Shown: in pieces, positions 1 to 4,891 of the stretch
How the letters are laid out: every line of letters begins with the position of its first letter
How positions within the stretch are numbered: position 1 is the stretch's first letter
Origin: a virus
Taxonomy: Duplodnaviria > Heunggongvirae > Uroviricota > Caudoviricetes
Length of the DNA: 4,891 nt
IMG/VR virus record: IMGVR_UViG_2585427789_000012
Reading direction: 5' to 3' (one strand)
The notes under the pieces: generated by a model
What the model saw: the letters and a program-made list of their open reading frames with translations, nothing else
What the model was told of the DNA's origin: nothing
The model's database searches: none
Made by a program: the position numbers and the translations under genes

Positions 1-265
1 GCGTTTCCCCGTTCTGGCCTGTCCACTGGCTCACCTGCATGTTACCCGCCACGCTCACCAGTTCGCCTTTGTGGTGTTTTGCCAGTGCGTCGGCCTGTCT
101 GCCAAACGCCAGGACAGATAACCACATCGTCGCCGTTCCGTCATCTGCCTGGCTGCACGGCAGGGGAACCGCCATACTCGCCATCGCCATTTGTGTCCCT
201 TTGCTGGTGGTCTTTAACTGCGGGTCAGCCACCAGCCGCCCGTAAGCCGCTATCTGTGCTGTCAT
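1..265 (-). CDS. Partial CDS (N-terminal 88 codons; gene continues past the window start): SSB-like OB-fold single-stranded-DNA-binding protein
   Basis: Minus-strand frame is open from ATG at 265-263 to the window edge; it is absent from the ORF track because it has no stop in the window. Translation MTAQIAAYGRLVADPQLKTTSKGTQMAMASMAV...WLSVLAFGRQADALAKHHKGELVSVAGNMQVSQWTGQNGE aligns by eye to E. coli SSB at the conserved G.L..DP...W..V..FG..A...KG..V...G...WT.Q.G positions. The ATG overlaps the stop of the upstream ORF (ATGA at 262-265). Confidence 0.6.
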   Translation of the reverse strand, partial: MTAQIAAYGRLVADPQLKTTSKGTQMAMASMAVPLPCSQADDGTATMWLSVLAFGRQADALAKHHKGELVSVAGNMQVSQWTGQNGET

Positions 266-507
266 GCTGTCTGCTCTCCGGTTTTAACGTTGATGGTTGT
301 CACCTGTTCCGCTTCGGCAATCTCCCGTTCTGTCAGCGTGGCAAAGTTTGCCGCTGCCGTGGTCATGAATGCGCTTACCAGTTCGGGATGTGCTTTTGCG
401 TACCCTTCTCCCGCGTTGCGGTCGATGATTTTTATCGCCACCCTCAGCCAGTGTTCTGTCAAATCAAGGGCGTGAGATTGTGGTTTTTTTGCGTGCTTCG
501 TTGTCAC
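262..507 (-). CDS. Hypothetical protein, 81 aa
   Basis: ORF with GTG start at 507-505, preceded by SD GAGGT (515-519 on the minus strand) at 7-nt spacing. Its stop is coupled to the SSB-like start. No family recognised. Confidence 0.5.
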   Translation of the reverse strand: MTTKHAKKPQSHALDLTEHWLRVAIKIIDRNAGEGYAKAHPELVSAFMTTAAANFATLTEREIAEAEQVTTINVKTGEQTA

Positions 508-794: not shown

Positions 795-2609
795 TTAATT
801 TTTGCTGTCGTCATTTGTGACCGATGCACATGATGGCATCCAGTCTTCTGAATCCTCTGTCAGTGTCACATTTGAACGCAAACCGTGCTTCGTTTTCCGT
901 TTTATATACTCCCTGCCATATTCCGCCATTGCCCCCGGCATATCTTTACCGAAGCGCGTCAGTGTTACAGGTTTACCGAATCCGTGTGCCCTCATATATG
1001 CCAGATAGGCGTGATAAAGATACCTGCGCGGACTGAACGGAATAATTTCGGCATTACCCACTAACAGACCATCACACATTACCGACGACATGAGATAGCC
1101 ACAGAAGTCCACCAGCGAATCGCCCTCGCGTTTTATCACCAGAGCTTCTTCTGATTTCTGCTGCTCATACAGCAGGCGTTTAGCTTCGTCCTGGTCAGAA
1201 AAACGAGTAAGCAGATGGCGAATCACAACCGCCAGCTCTCCTTCTATTTTTTCTGCCAGCATGGGGTCGCGCTCGTTCTCCGGTACAACCTCCGAAAAAT
1301 TGAATATCACCCGACGACGTGAGATCCCCCCGCTGCGGTCACTGAATGACATGGCGTTATTGTTCACCGCCAGCACGACCGCCTGAATGCGTGTTGAGTA
1401 GGGGGCTTTATGCTTCGGGTCGATTGCCACCTTGTCACCGCCTGTAATAGCCTTAATTCCTGCGCCATCACCAGCGTAGCGGGTCATATCCGGCATGATA
1501 ATCAGCGAAAAGCCAACCACTAACGCGCGTTCCCTTGCATCTTCCAGCGCCTTCATGCTTGCCGATACTGTGTTGGCCTTACCCGCCAGCATGGTGCAAA
1601 TCTCCGCCATCACGCTTTTACCACTTCCCCCTGGACCTGTTACCTCAATGAATAACTGCCAGTCGTACCGGTTCGCCAGCACCATGAATAATGCAGCCAG
1701 CACGCGATCCGTCTTGCGGTCATTCTCTGCCACCGAGCAGCGTAACCACTTCCAGAAATTCGGCGCATGTGTTGCCAGCGTTTCCCCCTCTGCTGGTGGG
1801 CTGAAAGGTAATTCACTGGCAATTAACAACCAGTCGTTTTTGTTATGCTCCCGAAAATTACCTGTTCTGGTATCAAATACCCCGTTACTGAATCCAATCA
1901 GGTTACGGGCTGTATTCCCCATTACAGGCAAACTTAACTTCATGGTATCGACCGCCGATTTAATGGCGTTCTGCGAATAGCTGATCTCCGCATCAATGAA
2001 AATCTGCGCCATAGCACGCTGTAACTCTTTATCCTGAATCGGCTCCCATACAACGCCGTTGTAATGGTGAACAGTGTCAGAGTCGGCATGAATCGCCAGT
2101 TCACCGCCATAATGTGCCAGGAGAACTTCGCCGCGCTGGCTTGCTCCCATCTGGTTAAGCGCCAGTGGTGCGGCGCTGTCTTCTGTTTTTTTCTTAACAG
2201 GAAGCTGAATCACCAGACCATCAGAAAGATTCTGGCGCTCACGGGCCAGATATTCGCGCCAGTTCTGCACCTCCTGGCCGTGCATACCCTCAGGATAAAA
2301 ATTTGCATCCTGTACGCCTGCCGCCGCCAGCTTCTGACCAATCGCCTTTATCATTACTGGCGCAAGATATCCGGCCCTGAATATGCGCACGGATTTTCTG
2401 CCTTCCGGCACAATTTGCAGCTTATCCAGTTCGGATAACTGCTGCTCCCCAAGCCACACAGGAGGCTCATTATCTCCGGCCATACGCGCGTCATGTTCCT
2501 GCCATTGTTTTGCGTGTGACCAGGCATCACTACCCGCAAAAATAATGACTTCTGTTTCTTTGTGTTTTATGCCGCGTGACTGCTGTTTTACGTTCGGTGC
2601 CAGTTTCAT
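795..2609 (-). CDS. P4 alpha-family replication protein (D5_N-like region plus SF3-type P-loop NTPase; 'phage/plasmid primase, P4 family' C-terminal type), 604 aa
   Basis: Walker A VTGPGGSGKS near residue 325, followed by ITGGDKVAIDPKHK...NNNAMSFSDRSGGISRRRVIFNF, which is typical of P4-alpha/D5 helicase cores. SD AGGGG lies 6 nt upstream and the ATG overlaps the upstream stop (ATGA at 2606-2609). The first ~300 residues contain no Cys, so no zinc ribbon is present. Confidence 0.88.
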   Translation of the reverse strand: MKLAPNVKQQSRGIKHKETEVIIFAGSDAWSHAKQWQEHDARMAGDNEPPVWLGEQQLSELDKLQIVPEGRKSVRIFRAGYLAPVMIKAIGQKLAAAGVQDANFYPEGMHGQEVQNWREYLARERQNLSDGLVIQLPVKKKTEDSAAPLALNQMGASQRGEVLLAHYGGELAIHADSDTVHHYNGVVWEPIQDKELQRAMAQIFIDAEISYSQNAIKSAVDTMKLSLPVMGNTARNLIGFSNGVFDTRTGNFREHNKNDWLLIASELPFSPPAEGETLATHAPNFWKWLRCSVAENDRKTDRVLAALFMVLANRYDWQLFIEVTGPGGSGKSVMAEICTMLAGKANTVSASMKALEDARERALVVGFSLIIMPDMTRYAGDGAGIKAITGGDKVAIDPKHKAPYSTRIQAVVLAVNNNAMSFSDRSGGISRRRVIFNFSEVVPENERDPMLAEKIEGELAVVIRHLLTRFSDQDEAKRLLYEQQKSEEALVIKREGDSLVDFCGYLMSSVMCDGLLVGNAEIIPFSPRRYLYHAYLAYMRAHGFGKPVTLTRFGKDMPGAMAEYGREYIKRKTKHGLRSNVTLTEDSEDWMPSCASVTNDDSKN

Positions 2610-2905
2610 TTTTTACCCCTGAATCCGTTAATCATGGTTTTCAGCTTCTGGATGTTTGCCCGTGCCCTGGCGTTGCTGGTGGACACGTTATGCGGCGCGG
2701 TCTGTACCAGAGAAAAATCACGCCGGAACTGATAAACAGGCATCACGCAATCATATTCGTAACCTTCACGGCGGTAGGTTACGCGCCGTTCTTCCACGTC
2801 CTTAATCATTACCGTGCCGCCGTACTGGTCGCGGTAAATATCGCCGCGCGTAAATTTAGGGTGAGTGTTGCCACTGGCAGTTAAGCCAGAATATTTAAGT
2901 TTCAT
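2606..2905 (-). CDS. Hypothetical protein, 99 aa, translationally coupled to the replication gene
   Basis: ATG at 2905 with SD GGAG 10 nt upstream; stop overlaps the alpha-like start. No family recognised. Confidence 0.6.
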   Translation of the reverse strand: MKLKYSGLTASGNTHPKFTRGDIYRDQYGGTVMIKDVEERRVTYRREGYEYDCVMPVYQFRRDFSLVQTAPHNVSTSNARARANIQKLKTMINGFRGKK

Positions 2906-2910
2906 TATTT

Positions 2911-3144
2911 TTATTCTCCGGTGTGCTGTTCTTTATATCTGTCGTGCAATAGATCTATTTCTTGCAGTTCCATTATTACAGGCTCAAGAAGCGTTATTAA
3001 TGCCGTGGCAATTCTTGATTTTTGTTTGTCGCGTTCATTGTCGCCAAGTGTTTCAAGCCATATGCGCAATATTTCCAGCATGTTTTCACTGTGAGAAAGT
3101 GCAAGAAATGCGCGGCCTATTGTTTCGTGGTAAATATCACGCAT
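2911..3144 (-). CDS. Hypothetical protein, 77 aa (predicted helical)
   Basis: ATG at 3144 with SD GAGGA 8 nt upstream; it overlaps the stop of the upstream ORF by 8 nt (3137-3144). Its stop at 2911-2913 is 5 nt from the next start. Confidence 0.6.
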   Translation of the reverse strand: MRDIYHETIGRAFLALSHSENMLEILRIWLETLGDNERDKQKSRIATALITLLEPVIMELQEIDLLHDRYKEQHTGE

Positions 3145-3397
3145 GGCTTACATCCTCAGGAAATTTTCTTCTATAACGCGCCTCTGCCACATATTCCGCA
3201 TAATCGGCGGCGATATTCAGTACATCAAGCCCCGTTGATTTATATTCTCTCGTGGAAAGTAAGAAAAAAGCCGCTCTAATAAGCTCTGGCATTGACGAAA
3301 GCGCATCAGCCGCATCATCAGGAACGCCGGAAAATTCCTGTTTCAGGGAATTAAAACGATCATCACGCATAACCCCCCCCATTTTCACAATCAGCAA
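3137..3397 (-). CDS. Hypothetical protein; 86 aa from the TTG at 3397, more likely 77 aa from the ATG at 3370 (alternative ATG at 3382)
   Basis: The ATG at 3370 gives the same 8-nt ATGCGTGA start/stop overlap seen at 3137-3144 and is preceded by the G8 tract (3373-3380 on the minus strand) acting as an SD-like element. The N-terminus is therefore ambiguous. Confidence 0.55.
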   Translation of the reverse strand: MLIVKMGGVMRDDRFNSLKQEFSGVPDDAADALSSMPELIRAAFFLLSTREYKSTGLDVLNIAADYAEYVAEARYRRKFPEDVSHA

Positions 3398-3602
3398 TCA
3401 GGATGGCTTTAGCCTCATTCAGCGCCATATCAGCACTAAATTGCATAAGAGCCAGTGAGTGAGGAACGAAAGCCCCGGTATATTCTGTTTCGCTGGTGGC
3501 GTGCTTATGCGCCTTGTCTGCGATAACAGAAATATCAATCAGCGCGTGCATCAGCGTTTTGATGGCTTCGGCGGCTGCGTCCGGTGTGGTTTTATTGTGC
3601 AT
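3363..3602 (-). CDS. Hypothetical protein, 79 aa
   Basis: ATG at 3602 with SD-like GGGGGA 6-7 nt upstream; it overlaps the stop of the upstream gene by 11 nt. The C-terminal codons run through the G8 homopolymer. Confidence 0.6.
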   Translation of the reverse strand: MHNKTTPDAAAEAIKTLMHALIDISVIADKAHKHATSETEYTGAFVPHSLALMQFSADMALNEAKAILIADCENGGGYA

Positions 3603-3798
3603 AGGTTTCCCCCTGGCGAATACGGGCGGCGAATACCATCACGCAGCCATCAGGAGATTGCTGACGCGCTTCCTGTTCGCTGGTGGCCTCAATGGTAATC
3701 ACGCGCGGTTGTGCCGTGCTCAGGGCGATAAAACGCCAGATGTATTTATTCAGGTTGTACGAGTCCCGCCCTTGCGGGTGTCTGGTATAATTTCTCAT
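3592..3798 (-). CDS. Small protein, 68 aa, first gene of the leftward operon; possibly Icd-like (host cell-division inhibitor family)
   Basis: ATG at 3798 with SD GAGG at 5-nt spacing. It is the C-terminal 68 codons of the 382-aa track ORF (MRNYTRHPQGRDSYNLNKYIWRFIALSTAQPRVITIEATSEQEARQQSPDGCVMVFAARIRQGETYAQ). The Icd-like label is from recalled annotations of P4-like prophages and is not verified. Confidence 0.55.
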   Translation of the reverse strand: MRNYTRHPQGRDSYNLNKYIWRFIALSTAQPRVITIEATSEQEARQQSPDGCVMVFAARIRQGETYAQ

Positions 3799-3905
3799 AG
3801 CTGCCTCGATACTTCTGCTATCGTTGGTGGTTAGACGCCCTGCATGTGTTGCGAGCACTGCGGGGCGTTGCTTAATTTGAGTGACAAAACTCAAACTGTG
3901 CGCAC

Positions 3906-3935
3906 AGATTAAAATCATGTGTGCGCACATGTCAA
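3906..3935 (-). promoter_or_regulatory. Candidate leftward early promoter (-35 TTGACA at 3935-3930; -10 TAATCT at 3911-3906, 18-bp spacer)
   Basis: Perfect -35 hexamer on the minus strand with a moderate -10; predicted start near 3899, giving a ~100-nt leader before the ATG at 3798. Confidence 0.4.
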
Positions 3936-3938
3936 TAC

Positions 3939-3967
3939 TTAACATCTCATTTTTTTTGCTGTATTGT
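3939..3967 (+). promoter_or_regulatory. Candidate rightward promoter (-35 TTAACA at 3939-3944; -10 TATTGT at 3962-3967, 17-bp spacer)
   Basis: Sigma70-like hexamers read by eye, positioned divergently from the leftward promoter and upstream of the ATG at 4004. Confidence 0.3.
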
Positions 3968-4003
3968 GTGCGCCCATAAAGTCCATTTAAGTGAGGTGCA
4001 TCA

Positions 4004-4201
4004 ATGTCTAGCGGTAACACAAACAACAAATCAGCAAAGAAAAATATTCGATTCCCACATGAGCTTATAGATGGGATTGATGCCAGCGTTGAACAAGAAA
4101 AATTAACTAATCCTAGTGCTAATTTTTCCGCATGGGTCTTAGATGCCTGTGGACGCAAATTAAAATATGAACAGCGCCGGAAGGCCAAAGAATCAGAATA
4201 A
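4004..4201 (+). CDS. Small DNA-binding protein, 65 aa; putative ribbon-helix-helix (CopG/Arc/ParD-like) regulator
   Basis: SD AGGT 6 nt upstream of the ATG. KKNIRFPHELIDGIDASVEQEKLTNPSANFSAWVLDA fits the RHH pattern of an N-terminal beta-strand followed by two helices. It is divergent from the early operon and next to the palindromic operators. Confidence 0.5.
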   Translation: MSSGNTNNKSAKKNIRFPHELIDGIDASVEQEKLTNPSANFSAWVLDACGRKLKYEQRRKAKESE

Positions 4202-4243
4202 TCACTATCAGCGCCGTGGTGTGAGTAACTACGGCGCATTGCT

Positions 4244-4432
4244 ATGCAGGGCAACACAATGACCGATAAAGAATTGACCAAAACATTATCACCGACACGG
4301 AAAAGACGGCGCAGAAAGATAGAGCATGAATCAGAAAGATTCGCACCTTGTTCGTTTGCTCTTGAGAAATTCCTTAAAGAGCGCAGGAAAAAACTCTCGT
4401 TGCAAACCTTGGAACGAACCAAATCTGACTGA
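4244..4432 (+). CDS. Hypothetical very basic small protein, 62 aa (or 57 aa from the ATG at 4259)
   Basis: ORF containing TRKRRRRK; weak SD for the 4244 start, AGGG 9 nt upstream of the 4259 start. A terminator follows. Coding status is uncertain. Confidence 0.3.
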   Translation: MQGNTMTDKELTKTLSPTRKRRRRKIEHESERFAPCSFALEKFLKERRKKLSLQTLERTKSD

Positions 4433-4498
4433 TCACATTGCCCACCAGCCGCAAATGTGGCATTGTTGGTGATGCTTTTGTTTTCCCTTGTTCCCACT

Positions 4499-4527
4499 GG
4501 CGACCCTTTTGCGGTCGCCTTTGTTTT
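4499..4527 (+). terminator. Rho-independent terminator (stem GGCGACC/GGTCGCC, 7-nt loop, TTTGTTTT tail)
   Basis: Perfect 7-bp GC-rich stem at 4499-4505 and 4513-4519, followed by a U-tract at 4520-4527. A weaker bulged hairpin with a U-rich tail precedes it at 4443-4484. The reverse complement has no U-tract, so it is + strand specific. Confidence 0.65.
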
Positions 4528-4565
4528 GCCTGTTATCCGGCAATAGTGGCGCTTCACCACACGGT

Positions 4566-4574
4566 TGATATAAT
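4566..4574 (+). promoter_or_regulatory. Extended -10 promoter element TGATATAAT
   Basis: Perfect TATAAT at 4569-4574 with TG at 4566-4567; no good -35, which extended -10 promoters can lack. Predicted start near 4581. Confidence 0.4.
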
Positions 4575-4580
4575 TCCCCT

Positions 4581-4651
4581 GCACTGATCCATTTTTTTCG
4601 CAGCAGGTTAATTGTTCAGAAAGGCGGTTCCTTATCGGGGCCGCTTTTTTT
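4581..4651 (+). ncRNA. Candidate ~70-nt small RNA (from the extended -10 promoter to an intrinsic terminator)
   Basis: Predicted start near 4581. Terminator hairpin GCGGTTCC (4624-4631), loop TTATC, GGGGCCGC (4637-4644; two G-U pairs), then T7 (4645-4651). No ORF of note lies between them. Confidence 0.3.
4624..4651 (+). terminator. Rho-independent terminator (8-bp stem, 5-nt loop, T7 tail)
   Basis: Stem GCGGTTCC/GGGGCCGC with two wobble pairs, followed by TTTTTTT at 4645-4651. Confidence 0.55.
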
Positions 4652-4891
4652 ATGCCTGAAAATACCCGATAACATGGCTTTTTAGTTTCACCAGGACGAA
4701 CGAAGCCCCGCCCCTGTTCGGGCGTATATCCAGTATTCATGGTTAGATCTCTGTGTTAGTGGATGGGTGGCGGCGGTGCGCCGCCAGCCTGATTAGTGAA
4801 CTGCCTCGCGGCTGTCCTTCCATGCCAGAACTTCGGATAAAGACCAGCCAACGGAACGACCGCCGAGTTTACGCCGTGATGGGAATTGTCC

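Follow-up and report, generated by a model that had tools for sequence, protein, structure and literature searches.

The DNA analyzed here, referred to below as the window, is a stretch of 4,891 nucleotides from a virus of the Caudoviricetes (IMG/VR virus record IMGVR_UViG_2585427789_000012), and its main subject is a cassette of five small open reading frames (ORFs) that are read from the minus strand and lead directly into a replication gene. Re-reading of the sequence gave the same five ORFs, with the same coordinates, strand, overlaps and sizes, as an earlier note made from the sequence alone, and the cassette and the gene that follows it are laid out as listed here.

3798 to 3592, minus strand: ORF1, 68 amino acids, basic (isoelectric point (pI) 9.5), Icd-like, first gene of the operon
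3602 to 3363, minus strand: ORF2, 79 amino acids, acidic (pI 5.3), phrog_5146 and phrog_2512
3370 to 3137, minus strand: ORF3, 77 amino acids from the ATG used by PGAP, acidic (pI 4.8), phrog_24341
3144 to 2911, minus strand: ORF4, 77 amino acids, acidic (pI 5.1), phrog_2196
2905 to 2606, minus strand: ORF5, 99 amino acids, basic (pI 10.05), RgdR ortholog (DUF4222)
2609 to 795, minus strand: replication gene, 604 amino acids, P4-family primase/helicase (D5_N, DUF5906, Pox_D5)

The five genes are tightly packed, with stops that overlap the next starts, and no terminator is predicted before the primase gene (a scan of the minus strand within 2606-3798 found no terminator-like sites). ORF1 and ORF2 share an 11-nucleotide overlap (ATGCACAATAA), the ORF2/ORF3 and ORF3/ORF4 junctions are overlaps of 8 nucleotides each (ATGCGTGA), a gap of 5 nucleotides separates ORF4 from ORF5, and the stop codon of ORF5 overlaps the start of the primase gene as ATGA. 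Two further in-frame starts lie upstream of the listed start of ORF3 (an ATG at 3382, giving 81 amino acids, and a TTG at 3397, giving 86 amino acids). Purine-rich motifs resembling Shine-Dalgarno (SD) sequences were found upstream of all five starts, as had been proposed.

Coding sequences from ~80 related loci were compared pairwise by the Nei-Gojobori method, and the ratios of nonsynonymous to synonymous substitution rates (dN/dS) were 0.23, 0.22, 0.23, 0.28, and 0.34 for ORF1, ORF2, ORF3, ORF4, and ORF5, compared with 0.8-1.8 for the same DNA read in two shifted frames. The low ratios relative to these controls demonstrate that ORF1-5 are genuine genes under purifying selection; the non-coding substitution pattern that the earlier note had named as speaking against them was not seen (0.22-0.34 in the annotated frames). 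Each of the five proteins also matches a PHROG family (E 1e-30 to 1e-52), occurs with its exact sequence on contigs of public collections (from 5 to at least 1000 of them), and is annotated by RefSeq/PGAP in the nearest genome, which is 99.9% identical (L001, NZ_CM128603.1, a human stool isolate). The substitution ratios, overlaps and database matches thus uphold the proposal of real, tightly coupled genes of an early operon leading into the replication gene, and it is extremely unlikely that the ORFs are decaying or meaningless frames of a cryptic element. Frameshift-type fusions and truncations of neighbouring cassette genes do recur in relatives, and an IS21 element interrupts the capsid gene of the nearest island, but purifying selection is confined to the annotated frames, which effectively refutes decay; moreover, the genes are kept in hundreds of genomes and in islands of demonstrated mobility, and an experimental phenotype is available for one member of the cassette, RgdR (PMC3378721).

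The cassette was matched in 1773 of 5426 complete Escherichia coli genomes, and in 750 of these the match spans at least 80% of the cassette. The gene order in the 99.9% identical genome is integrase, helix-turn-helix (HTH) regulator (alpA), YlcI/YnfO-family gene, the five ORFs, primase, a hypothetical protein, single-stranded DNA-binding protein (SSB), ProQ/FinO, capsid, prohead protease, portal, connector, HNH, TerS, and TerL, inside which the viewed stretch ends, and the island adjoins the ilv operon. The packaging set annotated downstream in this genome, outside the window (capsid, protease, portal, connector, HNH, TerS, and TerL), is the gene set that defines the capsid-forming type (cf-PICI) of phage-inducible chromosomal islands (PICIs; bioRxiv 10.1101/2022.09.08.507074). 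The window itself contains the 3' end of alpA (4891 to 4793, minus strand, cut by the window edge, with a translation ending in FPSRRKLGGRSVGWSLSEVLAWKDSREAVH and a stop), the primase gene and nine iterons, while int and the HTH gene (alpA) are found close to the cassette both in the 99.9% identical genome and in O157:H7 island OI-51, and an HTH regulator is found beside int at the alpA position in related loci. Because of the gene contexts of its relatives, the alpA 3' end and iterons in the window, and the published PICI and cf-PICI definitions, the element is identified from its sequence as a PICI, of the capsid-forming type in the nearest genome, and not as a P4 satellite. The major capsid gene of that genome (L001 4364-8155; NZ_CM128603.1) is split by an IS21-family element (istA/istB), and this copy of the island is probably not self-packaging.

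The left (early) operon of P4 (..., epsilon, orf151, alpha) likewise places small early genes ahead of a P4-family primase, and the iteron core TGTTCACC is presumably the same as that of the type I iterons bound by P4 alpha. However, P4 alpha is a protein of 777 amino acids (604 in the primase here), and P4 carries sid, psu, delta, epsilon, and the CI RNA, none of which was found in the present context: no sid, psu, delta, or epsilon gene is annotated in the full island of the 99.9% identical genome, and the window gave no genuine match to the CI RNA or to any Rfam family, the Rfam matches obtained being iteron artefacts. The description "P4-like island" in the earlier note can therefore be kept for the primase family and, presumably, for the iteron core, but not for the element, which lacks recognizable sid, psu, and delta genes and has the context of a capsid-forming PICI. 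According to Fillol-Salom et al., PICIs and P4 are separate lineages (PMC6092414).

The classical PICIs EcCICFT073 and OI-51 and the capsid-forming EcCIEDL933 share the same order of int, alpA, small ORFs including rgdR, pri/rep, and iteron origin, although the window, unlike these whole PICIs, covers only the regulatory and replication part of an island; in the papers describing them, the small ORFs between alpA and rep were left as hypothetical (PMC6092414; bioRxiv 10.1101/2022.09.08.507074). Helper-phage induction and high-frequency transfer have been shown for two of these relatives, EcCICFT073 and EcCIEDL933 (PMC6092414; bioRxiv 10.1101/2022.09.08.507074). With other alleles, the same cassette also lies upstream of a RepA-type helicase in classical PICIs, one of which is OI-51/CP-933C of O157:H7, located between roxA and phoQ. 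The cassette is a widespread, already catalogued and annotated module of E. coli PICIs, and the suggestion that it is the best place in the window for undescribed biology was overstated, given the number of genomes that carry it and its presence inside the studied islands OI-51/CP-933C and EcCICFT073. Among phages, 50,697 genomes were searched with the cassette by blastn in distant mode without a match, and tblastn searches matched ORF1 only to the cf-PICI-like vB_KppS-Ant and ORF5 only to weak DUF4222 relatives in temperate phages. When a fused ORF2-ORF3 protein (described below) was compared with the GTDB species representatives, a single locus was found, in Shigella, and the ORF2/ORF3 family is essentially confined to Escherichia/Shigella.

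The earlier note had assigned a family only to the first ORF, which does not hold for ORF5, a member of DUF4222 (PF13973, E 8e-24, 83.3 bits against a gathering score of 27). ORF5 is identical at 96 of 99 positions (97%) to the syntenic OI-51 protein of O157:H7 EC4115, falls in the same 90% cluster as CFT073 AAN79962.1/C1493, and keeps both the RGD at residues 20-22 and K35 (...KFT-RGD-IYRDQYGGTVMIK35), and by these sequence comparisons it is an ortholog of RgdR (ECs1581; CFT073 C1493). RgdR is 99 amino acids long and has a pI of ~10 (PMC3378721). Flockhart et al. (2012) reported that deleting rgdR or OI-51 lowers LEE (locus of enterocyte effacement) expression and type III secretion, that RgdR activates the LEE1 promoter and represses motility, that its DNA binding is non-specific, that the RGD residues and K35 matter for its activity, and that the CFT073 ortholog is active (PMC3378721). 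RgdR is encoded by all E. coli PICIs analyzed by Fillol-Salom et al. (PMC6092414). In OI-51, rgdR occupies the same position, directly upstream of and overlapping the PICI replicase gene, but the downstream gene there encodes a RepA helicase, whereas here it encodes a D5-type primase.

Upstream of the cassette, the window contains the following regulatory features.

3896 to 3976, both strands: divergent promoter/operator region, read from the sequence
3935 to 3930 and 3913 to 3908, minus strand: cassette promoter read by eye (-35 TTGACA, 16-nucleotide spacer, -10 TTTAAT)
3920 to 3929: operator O1, TGTGCGCACA, a palindrome in the promoter spacer
3896 to 3907: operator O2, CTGTGCGCACAG, at the start site
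~3967 to 3976: operator O3, a half-site over the -10 of the ylcI-like promoter
4004 to 4201, plus strand: YlcI/YnfO-family gene (DUF3950), 65 amino acids (NF041551 E 3.5e-16, PF13132)
3835 to 3868, minus strand: GC-rich leader hairpin without a U-tract, between the promoter and the SD of ORF1

The plus-strand promoter of the ylcI-like gene was recovered by a promoter scan. All relatives keep the layout of operators and promoters, with an operator core that is GTG-N6-CAC-like and varies between loci, all copies changing together. About 11 operator cores were distinguished, each present in three copies per locus, and these correspond one-to-one with the allele classes of the YlcI-like protein (26 distinct proteins). 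The operators vary independently of the ORF1 allele (e.g., L001 has an identical ORF1 and different operators), while two loci with an identical YlcI-like protein (L032 and L046) have the same operators. An operator core that tracks the YlcI-like allele and not ORF1 points to the YlcI-like protein as a candidate repressor of the operon, which would be allele-specific and act at the cassette promoter. The YlcI-like protein also gave a weak HicB-like match in PHROG (E 0.039). No published account of the co-variation between operators and YlcI alleles was found in the searchable literature, and both this co-variation and the ORF2/ORF3 G-run polymorphism described below appear to be new. The global repressor of Gram-negative PICIs is unclear (Fillol-Salom et al. 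2018, PMC6092414), and the co-variation gives a concrete, testable candidate for how these islands stay silent.

In the leader, all 27 distinct variants of the hairpin fold, with energies of -13 to -23 kcal/mol. By eye, the variants differ by changes that keep the pairing (e.g., ACG/CGU to AAG/CUU), but RNAalifold run on an automatic alignment gave only a weak consensus (-4.95). The hairpin matched no Rfam family.

ORF1, which follows this leader, is by sequence clearly an Icd-like protein, as the earlier note had tentatively called it (NCBIfam NF033153, E 1e-19, a score of 70.3 bits where the cutoff is 25, aligned over positions 1-48 of the 48-position model). It also matches phrog_6196 (E 2e-41), a family that carries the PHROGs label "transcriptional repressor", and given this label the function of the ORF1 family should be considered uncertain. 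Icd of phage P1 reversibly blocks cell division and is encoded by the first gene of the immI operon; ORF1 is likewise a small basic protein heading a regulated operon. A scan against Rfam found no C4/CI-type antisense RNA of the kind known from P1 and P4 upstream of the Icd-like gene. Published support for division inhibition by Icd-like homologs is indirect and comes from satellite loci.

The closest published parallels come from Silas et al., who found that the death of strain ECOR61 triggered by a phage protein is suppressed by transposon (Tn) insertions in an Icd-like gene and in the next two small ORFs, which overlap; the locus depends on six linked genes, a primase gene among them (bioRxiv 10.1101/2023.04.06.535777). 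In a P4 prophage of ECOR15, suppressor insertions were obtained in the integrase (DUF4102), alpA, the Icd-like gene, a hypothetical gene, and the primase (bioRxiv 10.1101/2023.04.06.535777). The ECOR61 six-gene locus and the ECOR15 P4 locus (alpA-icd-hyp-primase) thus resemble the cassette: each lies in a satellite or prophage and has an Icd-like gene, overlapping small ORFs, and then a DNA primase gene, and in both strains activation brings a toxicity that requires the Icd-like gene (bioRxiv 10.1101/2023.04.06.535777). There are also differences: the small ORFs of ECOR61 encode 61 and 63 amino acids, compared with 79, 77, 77, and 99 amino acids here, their number is not the same, and nothing in the window is related to the ECOR61 trigger, phage orf24.

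An open frame of 382 codons (3592..4740, minus strand) extends ORF1 upstream. It was rejected as a gene, since it crosses the promoter, the operators, and the structure-conserving hairpin, and runs antisense to two plus-strand genes. Icd-like versions of 135 amino acids called by PGAP in some genomes were likewise rejected as true N-terminal extensions, the SD and ATG of the 68-amino-acid form being conserved, and one gene caller gave a 477-amino-acid "protein" (P0242). The 382-codon frame and all of these long versions are probably annotation artefacts, judging from these features, and the artefact may bear on published calls of an "Icd-like protein with long N-terminal extension".

The explanation preferred for the whole, to which a probability of roughly 60% is given, is that the cassette is the early operon of a PICI, repressed in the integrated island and induced by a helper phage, that combines an Icd-like arrest protein, RgdR, and acidic binding proteins. 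The operon would be read from the sigma-70 promoter TTGACA-16-TTTAAT, which in the integrated island would be shut by the YlcI-like protein bound to its three cognate palindromic operators. A helper phage would induce the island, and AlpA would mediate expression of the operon; induction is AlpA-dependent in the characterized PICIs (PMC6092414). The Icd-like protein would then arrest division or growth of the host, and RgdR would reprogramme transcription in the host and may also help the replicase with which it is coupled. ORF2, ORF3, and ORF4 would most likely bind proteins of the host, the helper phage, or the island, and in the many relatives where the slippage-prone G-run fuses ORF2 and ORF3, the fusion would probably come at little functional cost. 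The role in host takeover or manipulation put forward earlier fits published data for two of the five genes, those for RgdR and the Icd-like protein.

Several points weigh against this explanation. The cassette promoter was read by eye and fails the strict rule of the scan, although only through a non-A at position 2 of its -10. The YlcI-like gene adjoins the operators, so that physical linkage could account for some of the co-variation. That the YlcI-like protein has a ribbon-helix-helix fold is only guessed from its sequence pattern, and a profile search of PDB sequences with this protein gave no ribbon-helix-helix relative. ORF2-4 showed no informative homolog or fold in the searches, and the small ORFs of ECOR61 differ from them in size. 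Finally, the RgdR phenotypes appear in uninduced O157:H7 (PMC3378721), which implies that the gene is also transcribed in the integrated island, by leakage or from an internal promoter, and that a strictly repressed operon is too simple a picture. One promoter-like match upstream of rgdR lies inside ORF4 (2972-3000, minus strand, TTAATA-17-AATAAT with an extended TG) and could explain the activity of RgdR in uninduced islands, although such matches are no more frequent in the region than expected by chance (3 found, 3.2 expected).

The parallel with ECOR61 also bears on a different explanation, in which the cassette and the primase form a phage-sensing growth-arrest module acting in abortive infection or superinfection exclusion, with the acidic proteins sensing or modulating a protein of the incoming phage. 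At ECOR61, six linked genes including the Icd-like gene and a DNA primase gene are needed and the suppressors fall in the Icd-like gene and the next two small ORFs, and the Icd-like gene, four small ORFs, and primase of the window also make six genes, arranged in the same overlapping style; in addition, EcCIMP1, another E. coli PICI, contributes to superinfection immunity. Such a module appears rather unlikely, however. Only the Icd-like domain is demonstrably shared with ECOR61, the sizes of the small ORFs differ, and a PADLOC search with the nine window proteins (E <=0.1) found no match, which also leaves the anti-defence role suggested in the earlier note without support. The toxicity in ECOR61 and ECOR15 may instead reflect uncontrolled induction of the satellite, as overexpression of AlpA alone makes EcCICFT073 replication toxic (PMC6092414). 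A growth-arrest module would be compatible with the preferred explanation of a repressed and helper-induced early operon, the two not being exclusive.

The earlier description of the small ORFs as uncharacterized, which fails for ORF5 as the studied RgdR, remains valid for ORF2, ORF3, and ORF4. In an AlphaFold 2 model of a fused ORF2-ORF3 homolog (predicted local distance difference test score (pLDDT) 78), the ORF2 part forms helices at residues 9-37 and 39-73 and the ORF3 part forms helices at 80-89, 97-115, and 118-146. ORF2 is accordingly predicted to be a long alpha-hairpin and ORF3 a short helix followed by an alpha-hairpin, and the model, together with the occurrence of stand-alone halves in distant relatives, suggests that the two are separate hairpin domains. 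No informative structural relative was found for the ORF2 and ORF3 models, and PDB sequence searches with all ORFs found no relative. ORF3 matches phrog_24341 (E 3e-41), and its exact sequence occurs on at least 1000 contigs. ORF4, which appears helical from its sequence, matches phrog_2196 (E 3e-41) and has 527 homologs; among the 120 listed, all those with a source name are from E. coli. When ORF4 was aligned with hhalign to the alternative alleles at position 4, probabilities of 91.6% and 58.7% were obtained, and position 4 in some relatives is occupied by divergent alleles of the ORF4 family. Paralogy among ORF2, ORF3, and ORF4 was considered on account of their similar helix patterns and identical MRD starts, and rejected with hhalign probabilities below 2%. 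ORF2-4 show no distinctive computational signal; they occur across E. coli, in hundreds to thousands of genomes, among them every O157:H7 genome sampled, and sit in a type of operon whose activation is toxic in related satellites.

The junction of ORF2 and ORF3 contains a homopolymer that varies among relatives.

3373 to 3380, minus strand: poly-G tract, G8 on the coding strand (C8 on the plus strand), encoding Gly-Gly-Gly of the ORF2 C-terminus and lying at the SD position of ORF3

On the coding strand, the tract reads GATTGTGAAAAT-G(n)-TTATGCGTGATGA. Distinct haplotypes were defined by the flanks of 240 nucleotides on either side plus the tract, and the tally (n=69, leaving out three loci that imply G12) was one G4, 17 G7, 30 G8, 15 G9, four G10, and two G11; six of 63 haplotypes with identical flanks had more than one tract length. 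The lengths G6, G7, G8, and G9 were confirmed in RefSeq complete genomes. Where n = 1 mod 3 (e.g., G7 and G10), ORF2 and ORF3 are fused into a protein of 154/155 amino acids that belongs to phrog_2512, a family (154 amino acids) spanning ORF2 and ORF3 end to end, and PGAP gives one protein of 154 amino acids in many genomes. The G-run thus explains the inconsistent annotation of this region as two proteins of 77-79 amino acids or one of 154 amino acids.

Variation from G4 to G11, including different lengths on otherwise identical flanks, and a run that nearly all relatives keep unbroken, also at ORF2 identities of only ~50%, would be consistent with an adaptive phase-variation switch or programmed slippage site that toggles between fused and separate proteins and changes their interactions. 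This idea is nevertheless very doubtful. The in-frame (fused) share of 22 of 69 haplotypes (32%) is the neutral expectation, and no ON/OFF effect would result, since ORF3 keeps its own ATG behind a G-rich stretch serving as SD in every frame. The O157:H7 genomes sampled all carry G7, with the fused form, so that the length is stable within a clone, conservation of the run may be hitch-hiking because the surrounding ~100 nucleotides are nearly invariant, and errors in sequencing homopolymers may lie behind some of the tract lengths. Frameshifting programmed at the run during translation or transcription was rejected, as G8 needs a +1 shift and slippage at the DNA level accounts for the data. 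Distant relatives have stand-alone ORF2-like proteins, many ending in ...HA and a stop over the ATGCGTGA junction, and stand-alone ORF3-like proteins as well. From this distribution we conclude that the two-gene state, present in the window, is ancestral and that the fusion is derived, probably as a tolerated product of slippage.

The most conserved nucleotides of the cassette are those at 3293-3373, the first ~25 codons of ORF3, where the mean pairwise identity is 0.94-1.0, synonymous sites included, above that of the flanking coding sequence. Either a recent sweep by recombination or an additional constraint at the level of the nucleic acid could underlie this conservation. A G-run that also appears to be prone to indels occurs in an alternative ORF4 allele (L018, L081, and L082).

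Comparison of the related loci demonstrates that the module is mosaic, with several alleles per position, optional inserted genes, and exchange at conserved overlapping junctions. Across relatives, identity ranges from 45 to 100% for ORF1 and from 52 to 100% for ORF5, ORF2 falls into allele classes of ~50, 75, 90, and 100% and ORF3 into classes of ~66, 85, and 100%, and ORF4 is either ~72% identical or replaced; the alleles at each position reassort independently. Whichever gene precedes ORF2 ends in ...(Y/H)(A/V)Q and a stop, because its last codons overlap the start of ORF2. Inserts at the ORF1/ORF2 or ORF2/ORF3 junction (L004, L018, L025, L056, and others; equivalent to 3592-3602 and 3363-3370) encode "MINLSLTDLN..." proteins of 70 or 122 amino acids, a "MSQEITLQQ..." protein of 76 amino acids, or a long Icd-like protein of 155 amino acids. 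Adjacent cassette genes are also repeatedly fused by frameshifts (P0247 and P0262). Nin-type arrays of lambdoid phages likewise have several alleles per position, optional genes, and conserved boundaries, but those arrays lie downstream of the replicase gene, whereas the cassette lies upstream of it and in a satellite.

The position of the cassette, always directly upstream of the replicase gene, raises the alternative that ORF2-5 are accessory factors of island replication (e.g., in origin remodelling or in the recruitment or loading of host replication proteins) rather than host-takeover genes. The stop codon of ORF5 abuts or overlaps the replicase start in most loci with either replicase type (the exceptions being gaps of 17-98 nucleotides), and ORF5 is translationally coupled to D5-type primases and RepA-type helicases alike. 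The two replicase types share their N-terminal ~125 residues (41-62% identity between the window and L002 and L163), and this shared domain may serve interaction or regulation in both. In the lambdoid phage mEp460, too, a DUF4222 gene comes before the replication gene, and RgdR binds DNA non-specifically (PMC3378721). A role confined to replication is improbable, however, as only int, alpA, and pri-rep are reported to be necessary for induction and replication of EcCICFT073 (PMC6092414), searches of Pfam, NCBIfam, PHROG, and PDB found no similarity of ORF2-5 to known loaders or initiators, RgdR clearly affects host transcription, and the alleles of the small genes do not track those of the replicase.

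A bolder synthesis, improbable when taken as a whole, would make the operon a regulated growth-arrest module of enterobacterial PICIs. In it, a hitherto unrecognized YlcI-type repressor, allele-specific and with no fewer than ~11 operator specificities, would silence a toxic Icd-like effector together with its acidic hairpin partners and would be the master repressor "missing" from Gram-negative PICIs; the G-run would switch ORF2 and ORF3 between fused and split forms and so vary which helper or competitor phage proteins are sensed.

As originally put forward, the finding matters little, the cassette being widespread and annotated and its last gene being a published virulence regulator. Of the leads that it offers, the candidate repressor/operator system and the role of ORF2-4 in a toxic early operon promise most.

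The remaining features of the window lie on either side of the cassette and its replication gene.

559 to 781, both orientations: iteron field downstream of the primase gene, nine GGTGAACAG/CTGTTCACC copies, from pattern positions
4244 to 4432, plus strand: small conserved ORF after the ylcI-like gene, 62 amino acids, phrog_21027
262 to 507, minus strand: small conserved ORF after the origin, 81 amino acids, phrog_1231, upstream of SSB in L001

The primase has Pfam, NCBIfam (TIGR01613), and PHROG matches, and the iteron field is, from its repeats, the likely origin. Inverted iteron copies yield spurious microRNA matches in Rfam. A cf-PICI-like element of Klebsiella has a related arrangement, in which an Icd-domain protein is followed by two small ORFs and then a primase.

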